Shown here in pieces: positions 18,847 to 60,405 of a DNA stretch of 64,000 nucleotides (positions are counted from its first letter, which is position 1; each line of letters begins with the position of its first letter). The stretch covers positions 1 to 64,000 of the IMG/VR virus record IMGVR_UViG_3300030433_001358; one strand, written 5' to 3'. The position numbers and the translations under genes are program-made. Origin of the DNA: a virus. Its lineage: Duplodnaviria > Caudoviricetes. The notes below the pieces were generated by a model. The model ran no database searches, was not told the DNA's origin, and was given only the letters and a program-made list of their open reading frames with translations.

Positions 18847-19884
18847 ATGCCAATTGTACGAGATTTTACTAATCCCTTTAACATTGCGGATTGGACTCAA
18901 GAGCTTCTGATTGTACCAAACCAGTACGGTAAGATTCAAGGTATGGGTTTGTTCTCTACCGAAGGTGTTTCTACCAACACTGTAACTTTTGAACAGATCA
19001 ACCAAACCATCGGTCTGATTGGTGACCGCCCTCGTGGTGAGCGTAACAACGTCTCCTCTGACTACAGCCGCCTGATCCGTTCCTACGCTCTGCCTCACTT
19101 CCCTCTGGATGACGCTATCAAGCCTGAAGATATTCAAGGTAAGAGTGCTTACGGCGGTGCTGGTACTGGTCAGCCTGAAGTTCTGGACATGGTTCGTGCT
19201 CGCAAGCTGGAGCGTATTCGTCGCTCTCATGCACAAACTCTGGAAACTGCTCGCGTTAAGCTGCTAACCACTGGTGATGTATATGCACCAAATGGTACTA
19301 TCGCTGGTAACTTCTACACCGATTTTGGTGTTACTCGTAAAGAAGTGGACTTTGATCTGGATACTGCTACCACTGAAGTTCTGCTGAAAGTAGAAGAAGT
19401 TGTTGCTCACATCCAAGACAACATCCTGTCCGGTGAAGTTGTAAACGAAGTTGTTGCCCTGTGCTCTCCCGAGTTCTTCAGCAAGCTCATCACCCATGCA
19501 TCCGTTAAAGACGCTTACAAGTTCTACGTCTCCACTCAAGAGCCTCTGCGTCGTGGTGGCCGTGAGATGGGTAGTGCTGGCGGTCTGGATCGTGAGTTTG
19601 TTTGTGGTGCTATCCGCTTTGTAGAATATCGTGGTTATGCTCCAGACGGTACTCGTTTCATTCCTGCAAACGATGCTTATTTCTTCCCGATGGGTACTAC
19701 TGATATCTTCAAAACCTACTTTGGTCCAGCCAACCGTTTTGAATTCACTAATACTATGGGTATGGAAGCATACGTCTTTGAGTATCGTAACCAAACCGAC
19801 ACCGAGATTCTGCTTCAGTCTGAATCCAACTTCCTGAACATCTGCCGTAAACCTGATGTTCTGGTTCGTGGTTATACCGCTTAA
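18847..19884 (+). CDS. major capsid protein
   Basis: 345 aa, lambda gpE-like family features (GLF..EGV, LPHFPLDD.I); strongly biased codon usage. Confidence 0.9.
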   Translation: MPIVRDFTNPFNIADWTQELLIVPNQYGKIQGMGLFSTEGVSTNTVTFEQINQTIGLIGDRPRGERNNVSSDYSRLIRSYALPHFPLDDAIKPEDIQGKSAYGGAGTGQPEVLDMVRARKLERIRRSHAQTLETARVKLLTTGDVYAPNGTIAGNFYTDFGVTRKEVDFDLDTATTEVLLKVEEVVAHIQDNILSGEVVNEVVALCSPEFFSKLITHASVKDAYKFYVSTQEPLRRGGREMGSAGGLDREFVCGAIRFVEYRGYAPDGTRFIPANDAYFFPMGTTDIFKTYFGPANRFEFTNTMGMEAYVFEYRNQTDTEILLQSESNFLNICRKPDVLVRGYTA

Positions 19885-19894
19885 TAAAGCTAAT

Positions 19895-19928
19895 GAGGGG
19901 CGGGGAGATTAGTTCTCCCCCTTCCTTA
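19895..19928 (+). terminator. probable terminator after the capsid gene
   Basis: GGGGAGA/TCTCCCC hairpin, weak T tail. Confidence 0.5.
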
Positions 19929-19943
19929 ATATAAGGAGTCCCT

Positions 19944-20396
19944 ATGGCTTTAACCCCAATCCAACAAGTTAGGTTGCTAATTGGCCTAACTGCCAGCAGT
20001 CCTTTTATTGACCTTGTTGATCTAACAGACGAAGAAATCCAATGGTTCTTGGATCATAATGGTGGGAGTGTTATTGCCGCTGCAAAGATGGCTGCTATTG
20101 CAGTATCTTTTCAGGTCACAGGAATAAATACCCGTGAAATCACGGGCGATATTCATGTGTATAATGACTTGTCAAGTCAATACCTAAAAGCACTGGATAA
20201 TTTCATCAAAGACGCTTCAGCGTATACTCTCCCTAACGGTCTTATGCCTTACGCTGCTGGGATTAGTTGGCAAGACGTTTGTGATAATAACAACACACCT
20301 GACAATGTAAGACCAGCGTTATCTAAGATTCAAGTTTGTGACGGGAAGGGATTGTTTTATTCTGATCCGTTTAACTCTGAATCTTGTGGTTGCTAA
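19944..20396 (+). CDS. head-tail adaptor
   Basis: Position after MCP; QVRLLIG...L.DEEI..FL motif. Confidence 0.7.
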   Translation: MALTPIQQVRLLIGLTASSPFIDLVDLTDEEIQWFLDHNGGSVIAAAKMAAIAVSFQVTGINTREITGDIHVYNDLSSQYLKALDNFIKDASAYTLPNGLMPYAAGISWQDVCDNNNTPDNVRPALSKIQVCDGKGLFYSDPFNSESCGC

Positions 20397-20884
20397 CCAT
20401 GATCACATCAGATAAGAGAGTGTGGGAACGTCTTAAAAAGAACTTCCTTAAACAAGAACAAACTAAATTGAACTTGGGTTGGTTTGAATCTGACAGGTAT
20501 GGTCCTGAGAATGACAACCTCCCTATGGCTCAGGTAGCTAAATGGAACGAGGAAGGTCACAACAACGGGGAAGGAAGTCTTGTTCCCGGTGCTGAAACTC
20601 CTCCACGTCCTTTCATGCGTGTAGGGCTTAGGAAAGAGCTTAAAGCTGGATCAAACGATAAAGAGTTTAAGAAGATTGTTCAAGCTGTTGCAGAAGGGAA
20701 GTCGGTATTCCAACCAATGCGTGAATCTGGTTCTGCCTTCAGAAGAACTTTACAAGAGACAATGATGAGGTGGGATACACCCCCTAACGCTGATTTCACT
20801 ATCGACCTAAAAGGTTTTGACGATCCGTTGTACCGCACAGGGCAACTTATTAGTAGTGTCGGATTTAAAGTAGGAGAAGATTAA
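20384..20884 (+). CDS. neck/tail completion protein
   Basis: GW....YG, A..NEEG, P.RPFMR, PN...T...KG.DDPL..TG.L motifs of this neck-protein family. Confidence 0.65.
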   Translation: MWLLTMITSDKRVWERLKKNFLKQEQTKLNLGWFESDRYGPENDNLPMAQVAKWNEEGHNNGEGSLVPGAETPPRPFMRVGLRKELKAGSNDKEFKKIVQAVAEGKSVFQPMRESGSAFRRTLQETMMRWDTPPNADFTIDLKGFDDPLYRTGQLISSVGFKVGED

Positions 20885-33908: not shown

Positions 33909-36260
33909 ATGGTACAGCAAATTTCTCCATTCATTGAAGCCAAGTACGGGTGGGGGTATGGGGCTGATAATTGGGACCCCGGAATGGATGAGAACCTTCT
34001 AAAGTTCTCTTTCATGTTTGATGGTAGGGTGGACGGTGTTGTTGCTTCCCTCCCTGCTGCTATTAATGGGCAATCTTATTTCCTCACGACAGATAATCGT
34101 TTCTATTTTGCTGTAGGAACTACATGGTATTCGTCTCCTTGTCCTCAATACTTCGTATTTAAGATTAAGGGTACAGGAGACTATTATCAATACGATGGGA
34201 GTAACGCCGTACAGATTGACAGTCCTGCACAAGCTGAATCTCGCTTCACTGCTATCGAAGCTACTCTATCCTCTCTAGGTACTGCTGCTTTCGAAGATGT
34301 AGCTGACCTTGCAACACAAGCTGAGTTGGATGTTGTAAGTGCTCAAGCTAACGCTTATACGGATACTTTGAGGGATGATCTAGCGGACGACACAAACCCC
34401 GCGAAAGGGGCGGCGATTGTGGGGCGTTCGTCCGTAACCGTGTATTCCCTTGCTGAGATGGCGGCACTGCCTACTAATCGCAAGTTGTCTGCATCTCTTT
34501 CGCTTGGCGGTCGCTCTGGTCATTTCTTCTTCAACTCGTCGGACCTTTCCGCAGAGGTCTCAGCTGACACGCTGCAAGGAATCTACATTGCCACATCATT
34601 CGACCCCACTGGCGCGTCCGGGGCGTGGGTTCGACAGTTTGGGCAGTCTGTAAGCGGCATGCCCGAGGTTAGTCCCGCATGGTGGGGGTCTGATCCTGCG
34701 CTCCCAGACAACACGGCAGCATTTCAGGCTGCGCTTGATACTGGCTTAAATGTAAAAGATACCCGAGACGGAGTGTTTGCCACTGGCGGCTTGTTAATGA
34801 GTACCGCCGGCCAGCGTTTTGAAGGTAGTGTCACGCTTAAAAAAATTGCAAATACAAACATCCAGCATATTCGGGTATTTGCGGATAACTGTTCGGTGCG
34901 CGGGCTTACACTTGACGGAACAGAGCCGCAAAGCGGGTCTACTAACGCGAACGACTCCATCAGGATCGGCACGTTTGAGACTGGCGGCTTTGATGGAGTA
35001 GAAATTCGGAATTGCACGGTGATCGGGGGCAAGGGTGGCGGTATTATGGCCTACCGCTCAAGTAACTGCAAAATCATGTTCAATACCACCCGCAATACTG
35101 GGACAAATGGCATTTTCTTTGGCGGCGGCGGGTCGGACGACAACCAGATCATCGGCAACACGGTTGACGGAACCGCAGGGCAAAACGGAATTTTTATTAC
35201 AGCTAGCCCTGACTCCAGCCCTACGGCTGAATTTATCTACGGGAATATTATTTCGGGCAACACCGTGCGCAACTGTGCGGATACCTGTATTGAATCGGGA
35301 ATCCACGCCGTAGGCACCCGCATATTCGGCAACGTGACAGAGAACTCACCAAATCCGGGGATTTTGGTCCGCGACGGGCTGCGCGTCTCTGTGACTGGGA
35401 ACGATGTTATATCTGGAGCGTCGTCGCTTTCGACATGGGATGGGATTGCTTTCGTTCGGCAAACTGAGCCGTCAACGTGGGCTTATGATTCAAACGTGTC
35501 CAGCAATACTATTTTGCGCAATCATGGACGCAACGGTATTTACATTATTGGCTCGGATGTTTCAGTCACAAACAATACCATCACTGACAATCTAAGAGTC
35601 CCAGCCGCAGACGGATCAGGACTTACCGGATTCGGCATTGCTCTAGGCATAGAAGCTGGCGGGGCAAAAGGAATTGTTATTCGCGGCAATGACGTTTCCC
35701 GAGTAAGCACCGGCATAAATATGAACTTTGCGAACCTAGCGGGCGCAATTCTGACTAACTCAGTGGTGGACAACAACACAGTTAGAGAAACGTCTACCGG
35801 AATCAGCCTTTTCAGATGCGATATGTCCAGATGCTCTGTGTCTCGAAATAGCATTTTTACTGTGGCGCTAAAGGGTTTTGCTACGGCGTCCATGATCGGA
35901 AACAATACAACCGCATGGATTGACAATATTGTCATGCCGGAAGGTTTTACAGTTGTAGGTGGTATTGGTGATCTGCCGCCCGTTGACGTGTACCGTGGCG
36001 ATGACAGAGCTTATGTGGCTAACATCACGCCCGCATCTGTCGCTGCTGGCGCTACGTCTTCTCAAAACTTTACCGTTACCGGCGTTACGGTGCGAGACAC
36101 GGTTTCTGCAAACCCGCCGACAGGGCTGGCAGCAGGGCTAATAATCGCCAGCGTCAGAGTTTCTGCCGCAAACACTGTGACAATCGGTTTTGTAAACGTC
36201 TCCGGTGGCGCAATTGTACCTCCGGCCGGGGAGTGGAAATTTTCGGCGTTAGTTCGATGA
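33909..36260 (+). CDS. tailspike / putative polysaccharide depolymerase (parallel beta-helix)
   Basis: D...DNTAAFQAALD entry motif, then many I.GN.V PbH1-type repeats; GC-rich after about 34390. Confidence 0.8.
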   Translation: MVQQISPFIEAKYGWGYGADNWDPGMDENLLKFSFMFDGRVDGVVASLPAAINGQSYFLTTDNRFYFAVGTTWYSSPCPQYFVFKIKGTGDYYQYDGSNAVQIDSPAQAESRFTAIEATLSSLGTAAFEDVADLATQAELDVVSAQANAYTDTLRDDLADDTNPAKGAAIVGRSSVTVYSLAEMAALPTNRKLSASLSLGGRSGHFFFNSSDLSAEVSADTLQGIYIATSFDPTGASGAWVRQFGQSVSGMPEVSPAWWGSDPALPDNTAAFQAALDTGLNVKDTRDGVFATGGLLMSTAGQRFEGSVTLKKIANTNIQHIRVFADNCSVRGLTLDGTEPQSGSTNANDSIRIGTFETGGFDGVEIRNCTVIGGKGGGIMAYRSSNCKIMFNTTRNTGTNGIFFGGGGSDDNQIIGNTVDGTAGQNGIFITASPDSSPTAEFIYGNIISGNTVRNCADTCIESGIHAVGTRIFGNVTENSPNPGILVRDGLRVSVTGNDVISGASSLSTWDGIAFVRQTEPSTWAYDSNVSSNTILRNHGRNGIYIIGSDVSVTNNTITDNLRVPAADGSGLTGFGIALGIEAGGAKGIVIRGNDVSRVSTGINMNFANLAGAILTNSVVDNNTVRETSTGISLFRCDMSRCSVSRNSIFTVALKGFATASMIGNNTTAWIDNIVMPEGFTVVGGIGDLPPVDVYRGDDRAYVANITPASVAAGATSSQNFTVTGVTVRDTVSANPPTGLAAGLIIASVRVSAANTVTIGFVNVSGGAIVPPAGEWKFSALVR

Positions 36261-36321
36261 GAGCGAGCGGCAATGCTAAAATGACACCACTAGTCACGGG
36301 TGGATGATGAGGCGTTCGCAG

Positions 36322-36459
36322 ATGTCAAAGCAATCTATCAAATCCAAACTAATCGCAGCATTCGCAGCAGCAGGTATTAGTGCCTCTGCTGCTTATGTAG
36401 CATATGATTTAACATACCCCTCTGAAGGATTAGTACAAGAAGTATACCTTGATCCTGTT
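36322..36459 (+). pseudogene. orphan 5' end of a SAR endolysin
   Basis: MSKQSIKSKLIAAFAAAGISASAAYVAYDLTYPSEGLVQEVYLDPV; homology stops where the antisense endonuclease stop codon begins. Confidence 0.7.
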
Positions 36460-37168
36460 ATTGATTCCATAAACACACAGTCTCCCTGCCAACCAACATA
36501 TCCGTCTGTATGGAGGTAATTACGGTCTCAATGGAATCAATAACCCTTAAGTTTACTTCTGGCTCTTGTATGTACCTACTAATAGCAAACCTCAGTGCTC
36601 GTATTTTCGCTTCTTGCCAAGCGTGGTGAGCAATCATAGGTTCTGTGAAATACCCAAGAATTTCCCGCTTACCGTTACCTGTCGTCTTACAATAAGACAT
36701 GAACTTTCCTGTAGATTCTACTTTGCTTACACCCAAGGGGTACTCACCTCTTATTGCGGAAGAAGTTCCTGTTATCTTGTTTAGGTATTGCGGTATAAAA
36801 CAGCAAGAATTTTCGGAGTATATTTTATCGCCATCCCCTAAAATATCTTTGTCTAGAGACCAATACCTTCCGGGAGCGTCTTTGCAAAGATATCCGGGTT
36901 GGTCTGAGCACCACTCCGCAAAGAAGTCAAAGCTCTTAAAAGCGTTGGTAGCCCCGCATACTGAAGCACTCTTTGTTTGGTAGTGCCCACCCTGAAGACA
37001 GCGTGAGTTAATTTTACTCCAGACACTGAACGCCCTTGTGGAGTAATTGTGCTTCACACCAGATAAGGTATCTGTAAAGGAGAATGTTTTTATATAAAAA
37101 CCATCCCTATCCTTGAAGTCTGGTAAATTTACTATAGATACAGTTTTTCGTGTGTCTTTCTTACGCAT
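36458..37168 (-). CDS. homing endonuclease (HNH/His-Me family), antisense within the lysis cassette
   Basis: AF.VW..I..RC, F..FAEWC, WSLDKDIL.....YS..SCCFIP; paralog of 47194 and 59728; AAGGAG SD. Confidence 0.75.
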   Translation of the reverse strand: MRKKDTRKTVSIVNLPDFKDRDGFYIKTFSFTDTLSGVKHNYSTRAFSVWSKINSRCLQGGHYQTKSASVCGATNAFKSFDFFAEWCSDQPGYLCKDAPGRYWSLDKDILGDGDKIYSENSCCFIPQYLNKITGTSSAIRGEYPLGVSKVESTGKFMSYCKTTGNGKREILGYFTEPMIAHHAWQEAKIRALRFAISRYIQEPEVNLRVIDSIETVITSIQTDMLVGRETVCLWNQ

Positions 37169-37183
37169 GTAGAGGTCGCTCCT

Positions 37184-37705
37184 TTGAATTTAAAAAGTAA
37201 CAAAAATATACACCGCTGGTTAATAGCCGCCGGCTTATCTTCAACAATTGCACTGTCTGGCGGTATTGTTTCATACTTTGAAGGAAAAAGCAATACCGCG
37301 TACCTTGATCCGGTAAATATCTGGACAATTTGTTATGGTGAGACTAGAGGGGTTAGTGAAGGGGATTTCAAGACGGATGAAGAATGCCTTCAATCCCTTT
37401 CAGAAGAGCTCCAAGTCCATCACCAGCAAATGGTTAGGTATATCAAAATCCCTATCACAGAAAAAGAAGAGGCTGCATATCTGTCCTTTACCTATAATGT
37501 AGGTGACGGTGCTTTTAGACGCTCCACTCTTCTGAGGAAACTTAACGAGGGTGACAGGGTAGGGGCTTGTAATGAGTTGCTGCGTTGGAATAAAGCTGGT
37601 GGTAAGGTACTCAGGGGTCTTACTTTACGTAGAGAAACTGAAAGAACTCTTTGTTTGGAGGGTGTGGCAGAATATGAAAAAGCTCGCAAAGAACTGGAAG
37701 AATAG
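37184..37705 (+). CDS. endolysin (GH24 lysozyme, SAR-type N-terminus)
   Basis: FEG..TAYLDPVNIWTICYG (E-D-T triad), SFTYNVG.GAF..STLLRKLN, GL..RR..E. Confidence 0.9.
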   Translation: MNLKSNKNIHRWLIAAGLSSTIALSGGIVSYFEGKSNTAYLDPVNIWTICYGETRGVSEGDFKTDEECLQSLSEELQVHHQQMVRYIKIPITEKEEAAYLSFTYNVGDGAFRRSTLLRKLNEGDRVGACNELLRWNKAGGKVLRGLTLRRETERTLCLEGVAEYEKARKELEE

Positions 37706-37919
37706 ACTGCTACGTTCCTATTCCTCCTTGGCTATTATTGCCAACGTTCTTGTTGCTGCTTCTGTCTCTGGTTTATCTGTACTAGGGGTAATCAGCAATG
37801 TCATTACGATTCCACTTCTGGTTGGTCTTGCTGCTATTTTTGGGGTTCTTGGTTTGCTTGGCAGGGTATTGGATCAGGGTATTGATGATCTTAAAGGAGA
37901 AGATGAGGATGTTCAATAA
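37674..37919 (+). CDS. putative holin
   Basis: 81 aa, two hydrophobic helices, overlaps the endolysin end, GGAGG SD. Confidence 0.65.
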   Translation: MKKLAKNWKNRLLRSYSSLAIIANVLVAASVSGLSVLGVISNVITIPLLVGLAAIFGVLGLLGRVLDQGIDDLKGEDEDVQ

Positions 37920-38346
37920 GTATATCCTAATTGCATTTCTCATCTCTCTTTCTGCCAACTTCGGATTAACATACGCAACATATCAGCTCCATTCTAAAGT
38001 GGCTGTTACAGAAGAGAAGTTATCTCTGTGTCAACAGAGCAATAAAGAAAAAGATGAAGAGATTGAAAAGCTAGAATTAGCTTGTGCTGTCTCTGAAGAT
38101 ATTATTGCTGAGTATGCAGAGACGAAGAAAGAAGTTGACCAAGAGGAAGAAGACGCTCTTTCCCAACTAGAAGAATTGCATTCAGAGCAACTACGTTCAA
38201 CTGAATCACAATCAGCACCACTCGTTAAACAAGAACCGCAAGTACAGCCAGAGGCAACCAATGAAGACAATACTGCTTCCCTTGACGATAAGCTGCCTGC
38301 TGTTGTTACAAGGATGCTCGACCAGCACTATAGAGTATCGAAATAA
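37909..38346 (+). CDS. inner-membrane spanin (Rz-like)
   Basis: N-terminal TM helix plus coiled coil; start at ATG 37909. Confidence 0.7.
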   Translation: MFNKYILIAFLISLSANFGLTYATYQLHSKVAVTEEKLSLCQQSNKEKDEEIEKLELACAVSEDIIAEYAETKKEVDQEEEDALSQLEELHSEQLRSTESQSAPLVKQEPQVQPEATNEDNTASLDDKLPAVVTRMLDQHYRVSK

Positions 38347-38530
38347 ACTTCATTTAATGCCAGATGCTTTACTTGTTGACCCATGTGAGATTAGTCCTGC
38401 TGGAGATACAGTAAGGAGCTTGGCTGAAGGGTATATTAAGAATACGTCTTGTGTAAAACAATATAGACTCCTCCTTGATAAACAGAGACAATACAAAACA
38501 AAAATAATTGAGGTGTATGAAGATGGCTGA
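38261..38530 (+). CDS. outer-membrane spanin lipoprotein (Rz1-like)
   Basis: Lipobox LLLQGC; P..LL.PC motif; overlaps the i-spanin 3' end. Confidence 0.8.
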   Translation: MKTILLPLTISCLLLLQGCSTSTIEYRNKLHLMPDALLVDPCEISPAGDTVRSLAEGYIKNTSCVKQYRLLLDKQRQYKTKIIEVYEDG

Positions 38531-38813
38531 TAGCACAGGTCATAGTGCAAACCAAAGGATCAACAATCTTACGGAGCGATTAGCCATCGGGCTGTTAGTT
38601 CTTATGTTGGGTGGTGTTCAAGCACAGTATTGGGCAGATAAGACAGAATCTAAGGAAGAGATTAAAGAGCTTAATGTTAAGGTGTTAGAGCTATATAGAA
38701 CATCTGTAACCAAACAAGAACTAAAAGAACTTGAAGCTAGGATGACCCAGAATGTCGAGGGGATTCGTAGTGATGTAAGGAACATGCTCACTCTTTATTT
38801 AAAAGATAAATAA
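38523..38813 (+). CDS. single-TM coiled-coil membrane protein
   Basis: One TM segment (LAIGLLVLMLGGV) followed by a coiled coil. Confidence 0.6.
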   Translation: MADSTGHSANQRINNLTERLAIGLLVLMLGGVQAQYWADKTESKEEIKELNVKVLELYRTSVTKQELKELEARMTQNVEGIRSDVRNMLTLYLKDK

Positions 38814-45248: not shown

Positions 45249-45827
45249 TTAACCTGCCTTATAGTTATTAGGGATTAGTTGACGCTGTTCACCATGATTA
45301 CAAGTATAGCCAGCTCCTTGTAAGTTTAGCAAATCAATTTGCTGCTGTCTATACTCTGCTGCTAAAAATATTGCAAGCTCCTCCCCATATTTCAGAAAAG
45401 AAAACGCCTTTGACTTGTGCTTCCCCGATAAATCTCGCCACTGAGCTACAGCATAAGTATAGTTCTCCGTTTTTTGGTCAATTGAAACACCGTTATATCC
45501 TGTCTTATTGAATTTGTTTCTCTTCATATTACGAGAGTTCACTTTCCTACTAACCGCTCGGAGATTGTCAATATGATTATTAAAAGGGTTTCCGTCGATA
45601 TGATCTATGACACACCCTTCAGGAATCCAACCATTTACTACCTCATATATTATTCTATGCACTTTATAAAACTTACCTTCCAACCATATACGATAAGATT
45701 GATTTTGTTGGATAACTCCTGCGACGTCATTGACATAATGTTTACTAACGCCTCTGCCGCCCTCTACTCTCCAACGCAACCCAGTAGGGGAAGTTGGGTC
45801 TATGTATACATATTTTTCAAAATTCAT
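45249..45827 (-). CDS. HNH homing endonuclease carrying a thyX-like C-terminal tail
   Basis: VHRIIYE, IDHIDGNPFNNHIDNLR HNH motif; ends IPNNYKAG, like thyX IPNNYRSG. Confidence 0.85.
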   Translation of the reverse strand: MNFEKYVYIDPTSPTGLRWRVEGGRGVSKHYVNDVAGVIQQNQSYRIWLEGKFYKVHRIIYEVVNGWIPEGCVIDHIDGNPFNNHIDNLRAVSRKVNSRNMKRNKFNKTGYNGVSIDQKTENYTYAVAQWRDLSGKHKSKAFSFLKYGEELAIFLAAEYRQQQIDLLNLQGAGYTCNHGEQRQLIPNNYKAG

Positions 45828-45828
45828 A

Positions 45829-46782
45829 TTAACCCGACCTATAGTTATTAGGGATCAACTTTCGATGCTGAATCCACCCTTGTAGATTACCACTCCAGAA
45901 CTTCCCATTACGATCAACATGTGTGATACCTTTTTCCCAAGATTTAGGGAAAGCTGGTTCATTTATAATACTAACACCCCATTCGTTCTCTGATTCTTTC
46001 ATAGGAGTAGCTTGGTGTTCCAACGGGCTTGCGTGGACTGGATCATCTGGTTGCTCTCCCTTCAAGTTTAGATTAGCACTGACTCGCTTAGCTTTCTCAA
46101 TAGTATCATCTAGTGTGCGATAGGACGCCTGAGCGCAACAGCTCTCACTAATAGCTAACGCATCCTCTAGCCGCCCGTCTTGATTTTCGCTTCGCCAGTA
46201 CCCTTCATTAAAGTATGGAACGTGCCACATCCCCGGTTTCAATGTAACTGGACTGCTATTCTCCTTAGCTTTCTTAATAGCCTTGGCTAGTGCCTCAATA
46301 GTAGGGTCTGCTGCCGGATGGTCACGAAGCCAAATAAAGTTATTAAGCTCTGTAGCTGTCATTACTACTTTCATCATTTGGAACGACTCAACCAGCCGAT
46401 TACAGACTTGTTTAGCATATCCTGCTTTATCGTACTCATCTGCAAAGTTCGCTGCACTGAGGGCCGCTAGACGCCACCACTCTTGGGGAGTATACATACC
46501 CTTAATTAGTTCATTATGTTCTCCTGCATCCTGCATTCCTTTATTCTTCTTACCAAAGCGTACAGGCATTGCAGGGTCACTACGAACACTACTGATCATT
46601 GTCTGTACAGGGATTGCACGAGACGAACTTGAGTTTTTAGAGAGCATGTTATGTGTGTTGAACTCAGCCAGAACAATCCGAGGGAACTCTAGCTCAAACG
46701 TAATAATCTCTTTACCGTTTACACTACTTTTACTGTGTGCAATTACTTTTGCCTTAATCTCCACTAACAACCTCCTTTTCAA
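45829..46782 (-). CDS. thyX: FAD-dependent thymidylate synthase
   Basis: EFNTHNMLSKNSSSSRAIP (RHR..S...SSR equivalent), HASPLEH. Confidence 0.85.
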   Translation of the reverse strand: MKRRLLVEIKAKVIAHSKSSVNGKEIITFELEFPRIVLAEFNTHNMLSKNSSSSRAIPVQTMISSVRSDPAMPVRFGKKNKGMQDAGEHNELIKGMYTPQEWWRLAALSAANFADEYDKAGYAKQVCNRLVESFQMMKVVMTATELNNFIWLRDHPAADPTIEALAKAIKKAKENSSPVTLKPGMWHVPYFNEGYWRSENQDGRLEDALAISESCCAQASYRTLDDTIEKAKRVSANLNLKGEQPDDPVHASPLEHQATPMKESENEWGVSIINEPAFPKSWEKGITHVDRNGKFWSGNLQGWIQHRKLIPNNYRSG

Positions 46783-47002: not shown

Positions 47003-47207
47003 TGATAATCTCCACTTTACTCCTGCCCAATTCTTTAATCTGTGCCACGTTGCACAAAGGCCACCACACACTTTCTGACCCCTCTGCCACGAGTCTCAAT
47101 AAACCTCCCTCGGTCAAGACGTTTTGAACACCATCCACATATATTGGAGTGGGGGAATCCTTAAAATGAACCACCAAATTATACACACGTATCTTACTCA
47201 CCTTCAT
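46989..47207 (-). CDS. hypothetical protein
   Basis: 72-aa ORF coupled to neighbours. Confidence 0.6.
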   Translation of the reverse strand: MKVSKIRVYNLVVHFKDSPTPIYVDGVQNVLTEGGLLRLVAEGSESVWWPLCNVAQIKELGRSKVEIINEDN

Positions 47208-48078
47208 TCTCCTCTAATATTCGTTTAGCCTCATCCCACGAAAACGGCAACGATGGATACCATTCATAAGCCATACCTGTCGATATTAAATCTTGGTAGG
47301 TCTTGCAGTCAATCACAAAATCTTGCCACCTACTGGTTGAAAGTTCTAGTAGTCTTGCATAGACATTCTCATCCAACTCTTCCTTATACTCATTAGCTAA
47401 CAACCAAAGGTTATATTTCTTGTAGTTTTTATAAGCCATCTCTGCCTGTTTTTGAGTTGGAAAAGTCCCCAACTTTCTCCCATTCGCAGCCGCCCTATAA
47501 TTACCAGACTCCATCTTAGTGACACCCTTCGCCAAATTTTTATCTCTTTTCTGGGCAGTTCTTCCTTTTAAGAAGAATTTGTTTATAACTTGGGGCAAAA
47601 AGCAGCACACATCAGGGCCGTACACCCTATTACCCTCTACCAGAAAATCCTTATCCAGTTCAAAGTGCCTGTTAGAAAAACCTTTCTGTGTTCCACACCA
47701 TGCAGCAAAGTTTTGAAAATTATGCCAATCTTCACAGACTATCACATCTTCATAGTTCTCATAGTGAGGGTGTCCTTGATAGTAACACCTTTCCAACATC
47801 TTACTCCATATTAAATGCTCTCTTTTATTTTTATCTGTAGAGTAGTCACCGTATCCCAGATATCCAACACCTTGCTTAGTTATACTGTAAGGGTTTTTCA
47901 CATTCCCGCTTCTGATAGCTGATTTATGCACCTCTCTCACATGCTTGTGTTTGTCTGTAAATTCAATTAAGCACTTTTTGTGATTCAAATCCTCAACCAC
48001 AACAAACTCTTCCCCTTTCGTATTCTTGCACAAAAGGCCCTTTTTAATGTCTTTAATATCTACAAAAACATCACTCAC
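47194..48078 (-). CDS. homing endonuclease (HNH/His-Me family) fused to the 3' half of a small host gene
   Basis: W..MLERCY, WHNFQNFAAW, ELDKDFL..GNRVYGPD.CCFLP; probable GTG start at 48078 after AAGGGG. Confidence 0.8.
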   Translation of the reverse strand: MSDVFVDIKDIKKGLLCKNTKGEEFVVVEDLNHKKCLIEFTDKHKHVREVHKSAIRSGNVKNPYSITKQGVGYLGYGDYSTDKNKREHLIWSKMLERCYYQGHPHYENYEDVIVCEDWHNFQNFAAWCGTQKGFSNRHFELDKDFLVEGNRVYGPDVCCFLPQVINKFFLKGRTAQKRDKNLAKGVTKMESGNYRAAANGRKLGTFPTQKQAEMAYKNYKKYNLWLLANEYKEELDENVYARLLELSTSRWQDFVIDCKTYQDLISTGMAYEWYPSLPFSWDEAKRILEENEGE

Positions 48079-48101
48079 TATATACCCCTTTCTTATTCTC
48101 T

Positions 48102-48218
48102 CTAGACAAAATCCCAATACATCCCTGAAGCCATCCACTTATCGTAGTCTTCCTTACTTTGGATACACTTCCTCCAGTCTGGGTGTTTCCTTCGTTTAGG
48201 GATAATTGCTTCAATCAT
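48102..48218 (-). pseudogene. 38-aa truncated gene, duplicated at the endonuclease C-terminus
   Basis: MIEAIIPKRRKHPDWRKCIQSKEDYDKWMASGMYWDFV; aligns in register with WQDFVIDCKTYQDLISTGMAYEW. Confidence 0.55.
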
Positions 48219-59727: not shown

Positions 59728-60405
59728 CTAAAGTTTTGTTTCTCTATAACTCGCGTGATCTTCCTGAATCTTGTCCAACCATCTGTTCAACCCTTCATAC
59801 AGTTTAGGGTGACAGTCCTCAAAGCTTTTTGCAAGCTCACGTCCAACAGAGACTTTTCCTACTTGCCAAGCTCTGTGCGCTTCCTCTGCTGTCTCATACA
59901 AACCAAGGTAGAGACTCGTGCCGTTTCCACGCACTCTTGCCTGAAATTTTTGATTTTTGTCTTTCCAAGACACACCAATTGGGTACTCCCCTCGTAGAGT
60001 ATTTCTAGCTGTCAAGAAAGTGTTTATGTTAATTGGTACAAAAATACATGTATCAGGTGAGTATACTTTAGAGTCTCCACCAAGAATATCTTTGTCTAAA
60101 CTCCATGCCCAAGATTTTCCGCCAACTAACTCTCTTTGTTCGTAACCTACTTCCATCCTACTCCAGTTCACAAAGTCTTGGAAGTCTCGAAACTTGTTTG
60201 TAACCCCTTCATACCTAGGGTGTTTTATTTGTTCTGAACCACTGCTTGAGCACCTTTTAAGCAGGCTTTCCCACCGTTGGCCAGAGAGTGTCACACAACG
60301 CTCATACAAACCCTCTTCAGTTGTTCGGTGAGTTCGTATTTGCCACTCACCATCCTTAAGCAAATCTTCATATAGTTTTACGTGTACAATTTTGTTTTTA
60401 GTCAC
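59728..60405 (-). CDS. homing endonuclease (HNH/His-Me family)
   Basis: RWESLLKRC, F.DFQDFVNW, WSLDKDIL.GDSKVYSPDTCIFVP; AP2-like C-terminus. Confidence 0.8.
   Translation of the reverse strand: MTKNKIVHVKLYEDLLKDGEWQIRTHRTTEEGLYERCVTLSGQRWESLLKRCSSSGSEQIKHPRYEGVTNKFRDFQDFVNWSRMEVGYEQRELVGGKSWAWSLDKDILGGDSKVYSPDTCIFVPININTFLTARNTLRGEYPIGVSWKDKNQKFQARVRGNGTSLYLGLYETAEEAHRAWQVGKVSVGRELAKSFEDCHPKLYEGLNRWLDKIQEDHASYRETKL

Follow-up and report, generated by a model that had tools for sequence, protein, structure and literature searches.

Why should a late gene block in a phage genome carry the beginning of one endolysin gene, then an endonuclease-like gene on the opposite strand, and behind it a complete endolysin gene of another type? 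This question is raised by positions 36,322 to 37,705 of the first 64 kb (hereafter the window) of IMG/VR virus record IMGVR_UViG_3300030433_001358, which comprises 83,875 bp with direct terminal repeats. There, the 46-codon 5' stump of a signal-arrest-release (SAR) endolysin gene and a complete gene for another, 173-aa SAR endolysin lie on either side of the free-standing endonuclease-like gene HEG1 (Table 1). We call the allele type of the stump "A" and that of the working gene "B" and use L-numbers for the related phage contigs that were compared with the window. The answer that we consider probable is that a free-standing homing-endonuclease-like gene has driven the replacement of one allele by another here, i.e., intronless homing, and that the locus is the scar of this event. 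All genes of the late block (ca. 7 to 39 kb) are encoded on the plus strand except this one, and HEG1 is the sole minus-strand open reading frame (ORF) of at least 100 aa with a protein-family match in that block.

The stump ORF (starting at 36304 or 36322 and ending at 36519) encodes a Gly/Ala/Ser-rich hydrophobic helix followed by SEGLVQEVYLDPV and has kept its ATG and ribosome-binding site (GAGG) as well as the membrane helix and the catalytic residues Glu and Asp. Its lysozyme homology ends at V46 (36457-36459), a codon overlapped by the stop of the minus-strand ORF (TTA on the plus strand, 36458-36460), and 19 unrelated codons continue to 36519. On the far side of HEG1, the TTG start codon of the B gene (37184) sits 15 nt from the endonuclease ATG (37166-37168), with AGAGG 8 nt upstream of the TTG and, on the opposite strand, AAGGAG ca. 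10 nt upstream of the ATG. The B protein shows the triad E33-x8-D42-x5-T48, as read from the translation, and a Gly/Ala/Ser-rich hydrophobic stretch at residues 12 to 32 that, read by eye, is predicted to be a SAR helix; the catalytic Glu-x8-Asp spacing is found in both the stump and the downstream gene, the Thr only in the latter. This protein is 86% identical to its counterpart in L046, which starts with ATG at the same position. Judged by these features, the downstream gene is the working endolysin, and lysis would now depend on it. A first-pass annotation of the same sequence had described the stump with its helix and motif and its break at the minus-strand stop, both start sites with their 15-nt gap and Shine-Dalgarno-like sequences on opposite strands, and a 14-nt repeat at the two junctions, and all of these coordinates were confirmed, as was its view that the working endolysin and the stranded N-terminus of the original one lie on either side of an antisense endonuclease-like gene.

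The phage is a myovirus whose portal protein shares 71% identity with its counterpart in Pseudomonas phage vB_PsaM_M1 (M1 in the following), a member of the Ounavirinae of seawater origin that is its nearest cultured relative and was detected at the protein level only; a DNA search of positions 35800 to 38400 against 50,697 phage records in near and distant modes gave no match. Over 42 aa, the stump shares 71% identity with the N-terminal end of the M1 endolysin, and in an alignment of 11 full genes and four stumps, it is 59% to 68% identical to A-type genes and 21% to 38% identical to B-type N-termini. The working gene, by contrast, is only 33% identical to the whole M1 endolysin along its full length, with 23% to 36% identity to A-type genes in the N-terminus and 27% to 37% in the rest, while the values for B-type genes (N-terminus/rest) are 93%/84% for L046, 63%/80% for L042, and 50%/73% for L049. 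There is no jump in this identity profile at the conserved YLDPV motif, so the incoming DNA brought a whole B gene and not just a new head. By sequence comparison, the stump is thus A-type and the downstream gene B-type over its N-terminus and its catalytic domain alike.

The borders of such an exchange can be read in a sister class of loci that carries a different endonuclease gene, HEG2, by comparing a filled site (L042) with an empty site (L080) from the same sampling project. In L080, the A gene is intact (187 aa) and lies in the same backbone, with the gene order 94-aa gene, DUF7338, A, and holin. The two contigs are ca. 99% identical from upstream through A codon 107, then lose all similarity, and regain ca. 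99% identity at the overlap with the holin start, around 12 codons ahead of the endolysin stop codon. With such flanks around a differing core, the exchanged unit is therefore HEG2 together with B codons 1 to ca. 158, replacing A codons 108 to ca. 175; the cassette thus holds ca. 158 of 170 B codons, and the last 12 or so endolysin codons come from the resident backbone. Of four differences in the left flank, three fall in the 37 nt next to the junction, which would be expected if the co-conversion tract was short, and L042 and L046 show a mosaic pattern with flanks of 92% to 98% and cassettes of 45% to 75% identity. These alignments indicate that flanking DNA is co-converted with the endonuclease gene in the sister class. 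The endolysin of the window ends in the same ...YEKARKELE tail, and the same right border is therefore likely for its own cassette.

Among the relatives, the locus occurs in several states, and the endonuclease is absent from M1, L026, L030, L049, and L080. An intact A gene lies directly before the holin in M1, L026, and L030, as the first-pass annotation had predicted when it expected one contiguous gene with the 36322-type N-terminus in endonuclease-free relatives, whereas the expectation failed for L049, an 84.7-kb contig with an intact B gene and neither endonuclease nor stump (DUF7338, B, holin). Besides the window, 16 contigs have the layout of stump, antisense endonuclease, and B gene (among them L042 to L048, L051, L052, L072, L073, and L079); L074 to L076 display a cut endonuclease and B only, since these contigs end inside the endonuclease gene and their stumps are out of view. 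The endonucleases fall into three clades with a mutual identity of only 33% to 40%, each with its own stump end: 43 to 46 codons ending in ...VY(I/L), in the window ...VYLDPV, for the HEG1 clade (window, L051, L072, L073); 107 codons ending in ...ALTDFTFN for HEG2 (L042 to L048, L079); and ca. 30 codons ending in ...AYDLTL for HEG3 (L052, with L074 to L076 in the same clade). At all stump-bearing loci, the endonuclease stop abuts the stump and the endonuclease start lies 12 to 15 nt from the B start, including L042, L046, L051, and L079. This pattern of one breakpoint per clade suggests that the stump end may be the nuclease target site. In L077 and L078, DUF7338 codon ca. 32 is joined to the first seven or so HEG2 codons and followed by an intact B endolysin (L077:2880-3010), and these loci are deletion derivatives that directly show that endonuclease and stump can be lost.

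The stumps themselves have diverged mostly by silent changes. Between L042 and L079, which share a breakpoint, the ratio of non-synonymous to synonymous substitution rates (dN/dS) is 0.16 at a dS of 1.18; L046 and L042 differ by 11 synonymous and two non-synonymous changes; and over the final eight codons ahead of the HEG2 junction, three loci encode the same protein sequence despite five silent differences. The L042 stump has intact A-gene counterparts with up to 96% identity, and truncated ORFs of 120 to 127 aa range from 65% to 100% identity to it. Such purifying selection fits repeated cassette entry into working A genes, and the simplest reading of these comparisons is that the cassette has entered them repeatedly, at a clade-specific position.

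Two allele types, the stump, presence and absence of the endonuclease among relatives, and the exact borders of the sister-class cassette are directly established, and from them we infer nuclease activity, cut site, immunity, and direction of spread as follows. An ancestral lineage would have had an A-type SAR endolysin resembling that of M1, in which a cassette of the antisense endonuclease and almost all of a B gene, arriving with its own ribosome-binding site and start codon, replaced everything after A codon 46 to about the overlap with the holin start, so that the first 46 A codons stayed as a stump. This leftover would double as the left homology arm for copying the cassette into further A-type phages: During mixed infection, the endonuclease would cleave intact A alleles in or close to the codons that correspond to the end of the stump, and the break would be repaired with the cassette-bearing genome as template. 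The latter is proposed to be immune because the downstream half of the site is missing from its stump and the B allele has a different sequence there.

HEG1 is composed of an N-terminal domain, an AP2 DNA-binding domain, and a C-terminal helical hairpin, and its AlphaFold model is confident (pLDDT 92.5). A Foldseek search of the PDB with this model recovered the AP2 domain only, with 1gcc_A as match (template modeling score 0.70 by target, probability 1.00), and at the sequence level the family profile matches the AP2 domain of WRI1 (8.5e-4) while Pfam AP2 was matched in 3 of 24 family members; structure and sequence together indicate that HEG1 carries an AP2 DNA-binding domain. Results of a whole-model structure search with VIA were dominated by the C-terminal hairpin, and the overall fold is common among unnamed phage proteins. 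Two paralogues are encoded in the same genome. A scan for sigma-70-type promoters upstream of the endonuclease gene found none. The window contains three further endonuclease genes, all on the minus strand (45249-45827, 47194-48138, and 59728-60405); the first is a canonical HNH_3 plus AP2 gene that abuts thyX (45829-46782), two of the three are the HEG1 paralogues, and one lies between the genes for DNA polymerase and a DnaB-like helicase.

Several observations weigh against allele replacement by a homing endonuclease at this locus. The HEG1 family is uncharacterised, and we infer its nuclease activity from its behaviour, i.e., several copies per genome and insertion polymorphism. Its invariant residues are D106-K107-D108...N130, a D-K-D...N core without His and with Lys where His would be expected, and the phrog_953 label "HNH endonuclease" is an annotation only. 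HNH and other nuclease models in Pfam and NCBIfam did not match HEG1, sequence searches of the PDB linked it to no known catalytic family, and a profile comparison of the family with the canonical HNH_3-AP2 protein of the window gave no match; the best PDB match of residues 26 to 139 is indeed an HNH restriction enzyme, PacI (3m7k_A), though a weak one (Z 4.6, root-mean-square deviation 3.8, 88 aligned residues). Within the HEG1 clade, the stumps of L051 and L072 end 9 nt earlier than that of the window. Moreover, the B genes of the window and L046 are 84% to 98% identical at their 5' ends from the start codon on while their endonucleases are unalignable, so endonuclease and B gene are not a fixed unit; endonucleases are also swapped beside one B allele, and ordinary recombination shuffles the locus as well. 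Finally, a degenerate IMG/VR search for the window's own stump allele found no near-isogenic empty site, and the right border and the direction of exchange in this phage therefore rest on analogy to the sister class.

The first-pass annotation had offered a different account in which the mobile element comprises the endonuclease and a substitute 5' end reaching to YLDPV, the catalytic domain is original, and recombination at the repeat restores the original gene and thereby switches lysis properties. Stump and repeat are real and in register: TACCTTGATCC(T/G)GT has exactly two copies in the window (starting at 36445 and 37301), both are codon-aligned, and the 856-nt deletion between them would stay in frame, while the sister-class endolysin with its resident last 12 or so codons is formally a hybrid gene. 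We nevertheless regard this account as very improbable, since beyond YLDPV the endolysin has the same identity pattern as in its N-terminus (27% to 37% to A, 70% to 84% to B), the whole B gene is found in the endonuclease-free L049, and the mapped sister cassette spans ca. 158 of 170 codons. A chance match was rejected for the repeat (0 expected in shuffles), as was a duplication caused by insertion; its two copies, with only 11 contiguous identical bases, are read as the homologous coding of a conserved Y-L-D-P-V in two diverged lysozyme alleles. Recombination between them would yield an A/B chimera rather than the original gene, and when a database of 5.8 billion sequences was searched, an A-type N-terminus was present in none of the 120 nearest B-type proteins, so the product of such recombination is not seen in nature; a lysis switch found no support, and programmed recombination was rejected. 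The in-register YLDPV copies could also mark the exons of a single endolysin gene with a group I intron that contains the antisense endonuclease ORF and is spliced from 36459 to 37315. We rejected this as next to impossible: Rfam matched no family over positions 35800 to 38600 at E values up to 1, HEG1 on its opposite strand has its own ATG and ribosome-binding site between a stump and a complete gene, and the latter comes with a ribosome-binding site, start codon, and SAR helix of its own, which are conserved in endonuclease-free relatives.

If A and B had instead been ancestral tandem paralogues, with endonucleases landing in a redundant A copy and eroding it, no allele replacement would be needed, and M1 is indeed annotated with two adjacent "lysozyme" genes. 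The first of these is a DUF7338-type membrane protein and not a lysozyme, however, an intact A gene next to an intact B gene was seen in none of the examined relatives, and the filled and empty sites differ by replacement and not insertion, with no 3' part of A left; this decay scenario, which has very little probability in our view, was likewise rejected. It is somewhat less far-fetched, though still unlikely, that the stump is expressed as a peptide of 65 aa, read-through tail included, and maintained by selection, e.g., to modulate release of the SAR endolysin or lysis timing. The stump ORF is intact in all 17 loci of the three classes with the start codon kept wherever the contig end does not cut it, the one in the window has a ribosome-binding site, and dN/dS is low (0.16 at a dS of ca. 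1.2) with only synonymous differences in the last eight codons before the junction. Three very different lengths (30, 43 to 46, and 107 codons) argue against a single function, L077 has deleted the stump entirely and L049 has none, and a low dN/dS is equally expected of young copies of working A genes, of which 96%-identical intact examples exist. A bolder combination, which we consider only slightly less doubtful, is that three diverged AP2-endonuclease clades with Lys in place of the catalytic His each cut a different conserved motif in one endolysin allele as gene drives that swap the lysis enzyme, and that the conserved stumps are expressed and tune lysis.

Table 1. Position and support of the features at the endolysin locus and next to it (coordinates of the window).
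Feature	Position	Strand	Support
A-type SAR endolysin 5' stump, 46 codons	36322..36459	+	homology to intact A-type endolysins
14-nt repeat, copy 1, codes Y-L-D-P-V of stump	36445..36458	+	
Perfect 14-nt inverted repeat (36457-36470 and 36531-36544)	36457..36544	.	left arm begins exactly at stump/endonuclease junction
Free-standing endonuclease-like gene HEG1, 236 aa	36458..37168	-	phrog_953 "HNH endonuclease" 5.5e-51
15-nt divergent spacer with ribosome-binding sites for both genes	37169..37183	.	read from sequence
B-type SAR endolysin (GH24 lysozyme), 173 aa, TTG start	37184..37705	+	PF00959 9.6e-41
14-nt repeat, copy 2, codes Y-L-D-P-V of working gene	37301..37314	+	
Tail fibre/tailspike gene, 783 aa (directly upstream, context only)	33909..36260	+	PF13229 Beta_helix 1e-14 and NosD
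Holin-like protein, 81 aa, two hydrophobic helices	37674..37919	+	phrog_21126 1e-15; phrog_297 holin 0.006
Spanin pair	37909..38530	+	Rz-like 37909-38346 (phrog_4349 Rz-like spanin 3.4e-7); embedded/overlapping Rz1-like lipoprotein 38261-38530 (contains LLLLQGC)

The inverted repeat at the left junction folds with z of about -3.5 on either strand, and as a result of this repeat, V-I-D-S-I is encoded both in the read-through tail of the stump and in the endonuclease. The endonuclease of the window has three extra C-terminal codons relative to its family, and the inverted repeat was absent from the junctions of six related loci in which we looked for it. It may be templated filler of an illegitimate joining or a lineage-specific RNA hairpin. 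The B endolysin is itself mosaic around 37393-37520: Compared to L046, its ends are 84% to 98% and its middle 53% to 78% identical, while the respective values compared to L052 are 44% to 70% for the ends and 80% to 100% for the middle.

Directly upstream, the tailspike gene differs from the remaining window in its GC content (ca. 50% versus ca. 41%), and relatives share only its first 150 to 300 residues, a pattern suggesting a recently exchanged receptor-binding part that adjoins the endolysin scar. Downstream, the start of the holin-like gene overlaps the final 32 nt of the endolysin gene, and its product is 54% identical to that of the gene at the same position in M1. The M1 protein annotated as "lysozyme" in GenBank upstream of the true endolysin (L004:3303-3923, UZS00946.1) shows no lysozyme similarity and is by eye ca. 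90% identical to the DUF7338 (PF24027) protein of L049; this annotation looks wrong. A mirror-image layout is found at the spanin gene of an 88.8-kb related phage (L028:19325-20435), where a complete Rz1-like gene (19325-19597) is followed by an antisense endonuclease paralogue (19588-20253) and the 3' stump of a second Rz1 inside ORF 20169-20435.

The locus fits the known scheme of intronless homing, and what is new is the different phage group and the lysis enzyme as the exchanged marker. Free-standing endonucleases of the T4 type (SegB, SegE, SegF, SegG, and MobE) act in intronless homing and marker exclusion: They cut alleles lacking them, drag flanking markers along, and sometimes land in essential genes (PMC2988022). 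Like these, the endonuclease gene discussed here is part of neither an intron nor an intein, has an important gene as its neighbour, and is present or absent among related phages; co-conversion replaces the neighbouring allele, and different endonucleases may fill the same slot. Unlike in the T4-type systems, it is antisense inside a late operon, displaced and incoming alleles are only ca. 33% identical, a 5' stump of the displaced gene remains, and the protein family is an uncharacterised one with putative cleavage activity. The mobE gene in nrdA of Aeromonas phage Aeh1 and mobA in T4 gene 39/60 have created "genes in pieces" (PMC2988022, citing Friedrich et al. 2007). In those cases as well, an essential phage gene is interrupted by the endonuclease gene in a region that is conserved and important for catalysis, yet both halves are needed and reassemble, whereas here the upstream piece is redundant and a complete gene follows.

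A further parallel is found in fungal mitochondria, where mobile endonuclease ORFs are said to create hybrid genes, reportedly described by Paquin and colleagues in 1994 for atp6 of Allomyces macrogynus. There, too, the endonuclease is said to bring a replacement portion of the host gene and to leave the displaced portion behind as a stump; the part replaced in frame is reportedly a short 3' end, with the endonuclease on the same strand, in contrast to ca. 93% of the gene including its 5' end and an antisense endonuclease in our case. With the HNH-AP2 homing endonucleases of phages (HNH_3 plus AP2, such as the product of 45249-45827), HEG1 shares an AP2 domain after a small N-terminal domain, a similar size, and multicopy occurrence, and it differs from them in the missing HNH_3 match, the His-less core, and the null profile comparison. 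The SAR endolysins R21 of phage P21 and Lyz of phage P1 are glycoside hydrolase family 24 (GH24) lysozymes that are released from the membrane. Both the stump and the working gene resemble them in a Gly/Ala/Ser-rich N-terminal helix followed by the Glu-x8-Asp-x5-Thr motif (with Thr in the working gene only), and a small two-helix holin and a spanin pair follow as in their setting; compared to R21 and Lyz, nothing is unusual in the enzyme itself, and its membrane release is predicted from sequence.

For genome annotation, short "lysozyme" ORFs of 65 to 127 aa beside such endonuclease genes should be read as stumps and not as enzymes. The three nuclease clades with their three predicted target motifs form a testable set for an uncharacterised protein family. 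For the phages themselves, the locus would represent a homing-endonuclease-type gene drive on the lysis module of a marine or aquatic group of myoviruses far from T4, with filled and empty sites exactly mapped in natural populations. It would explain mosaic endolysin alleles, in that an entire alternative enzyme can reach a related phage along with a selfish nuclease.

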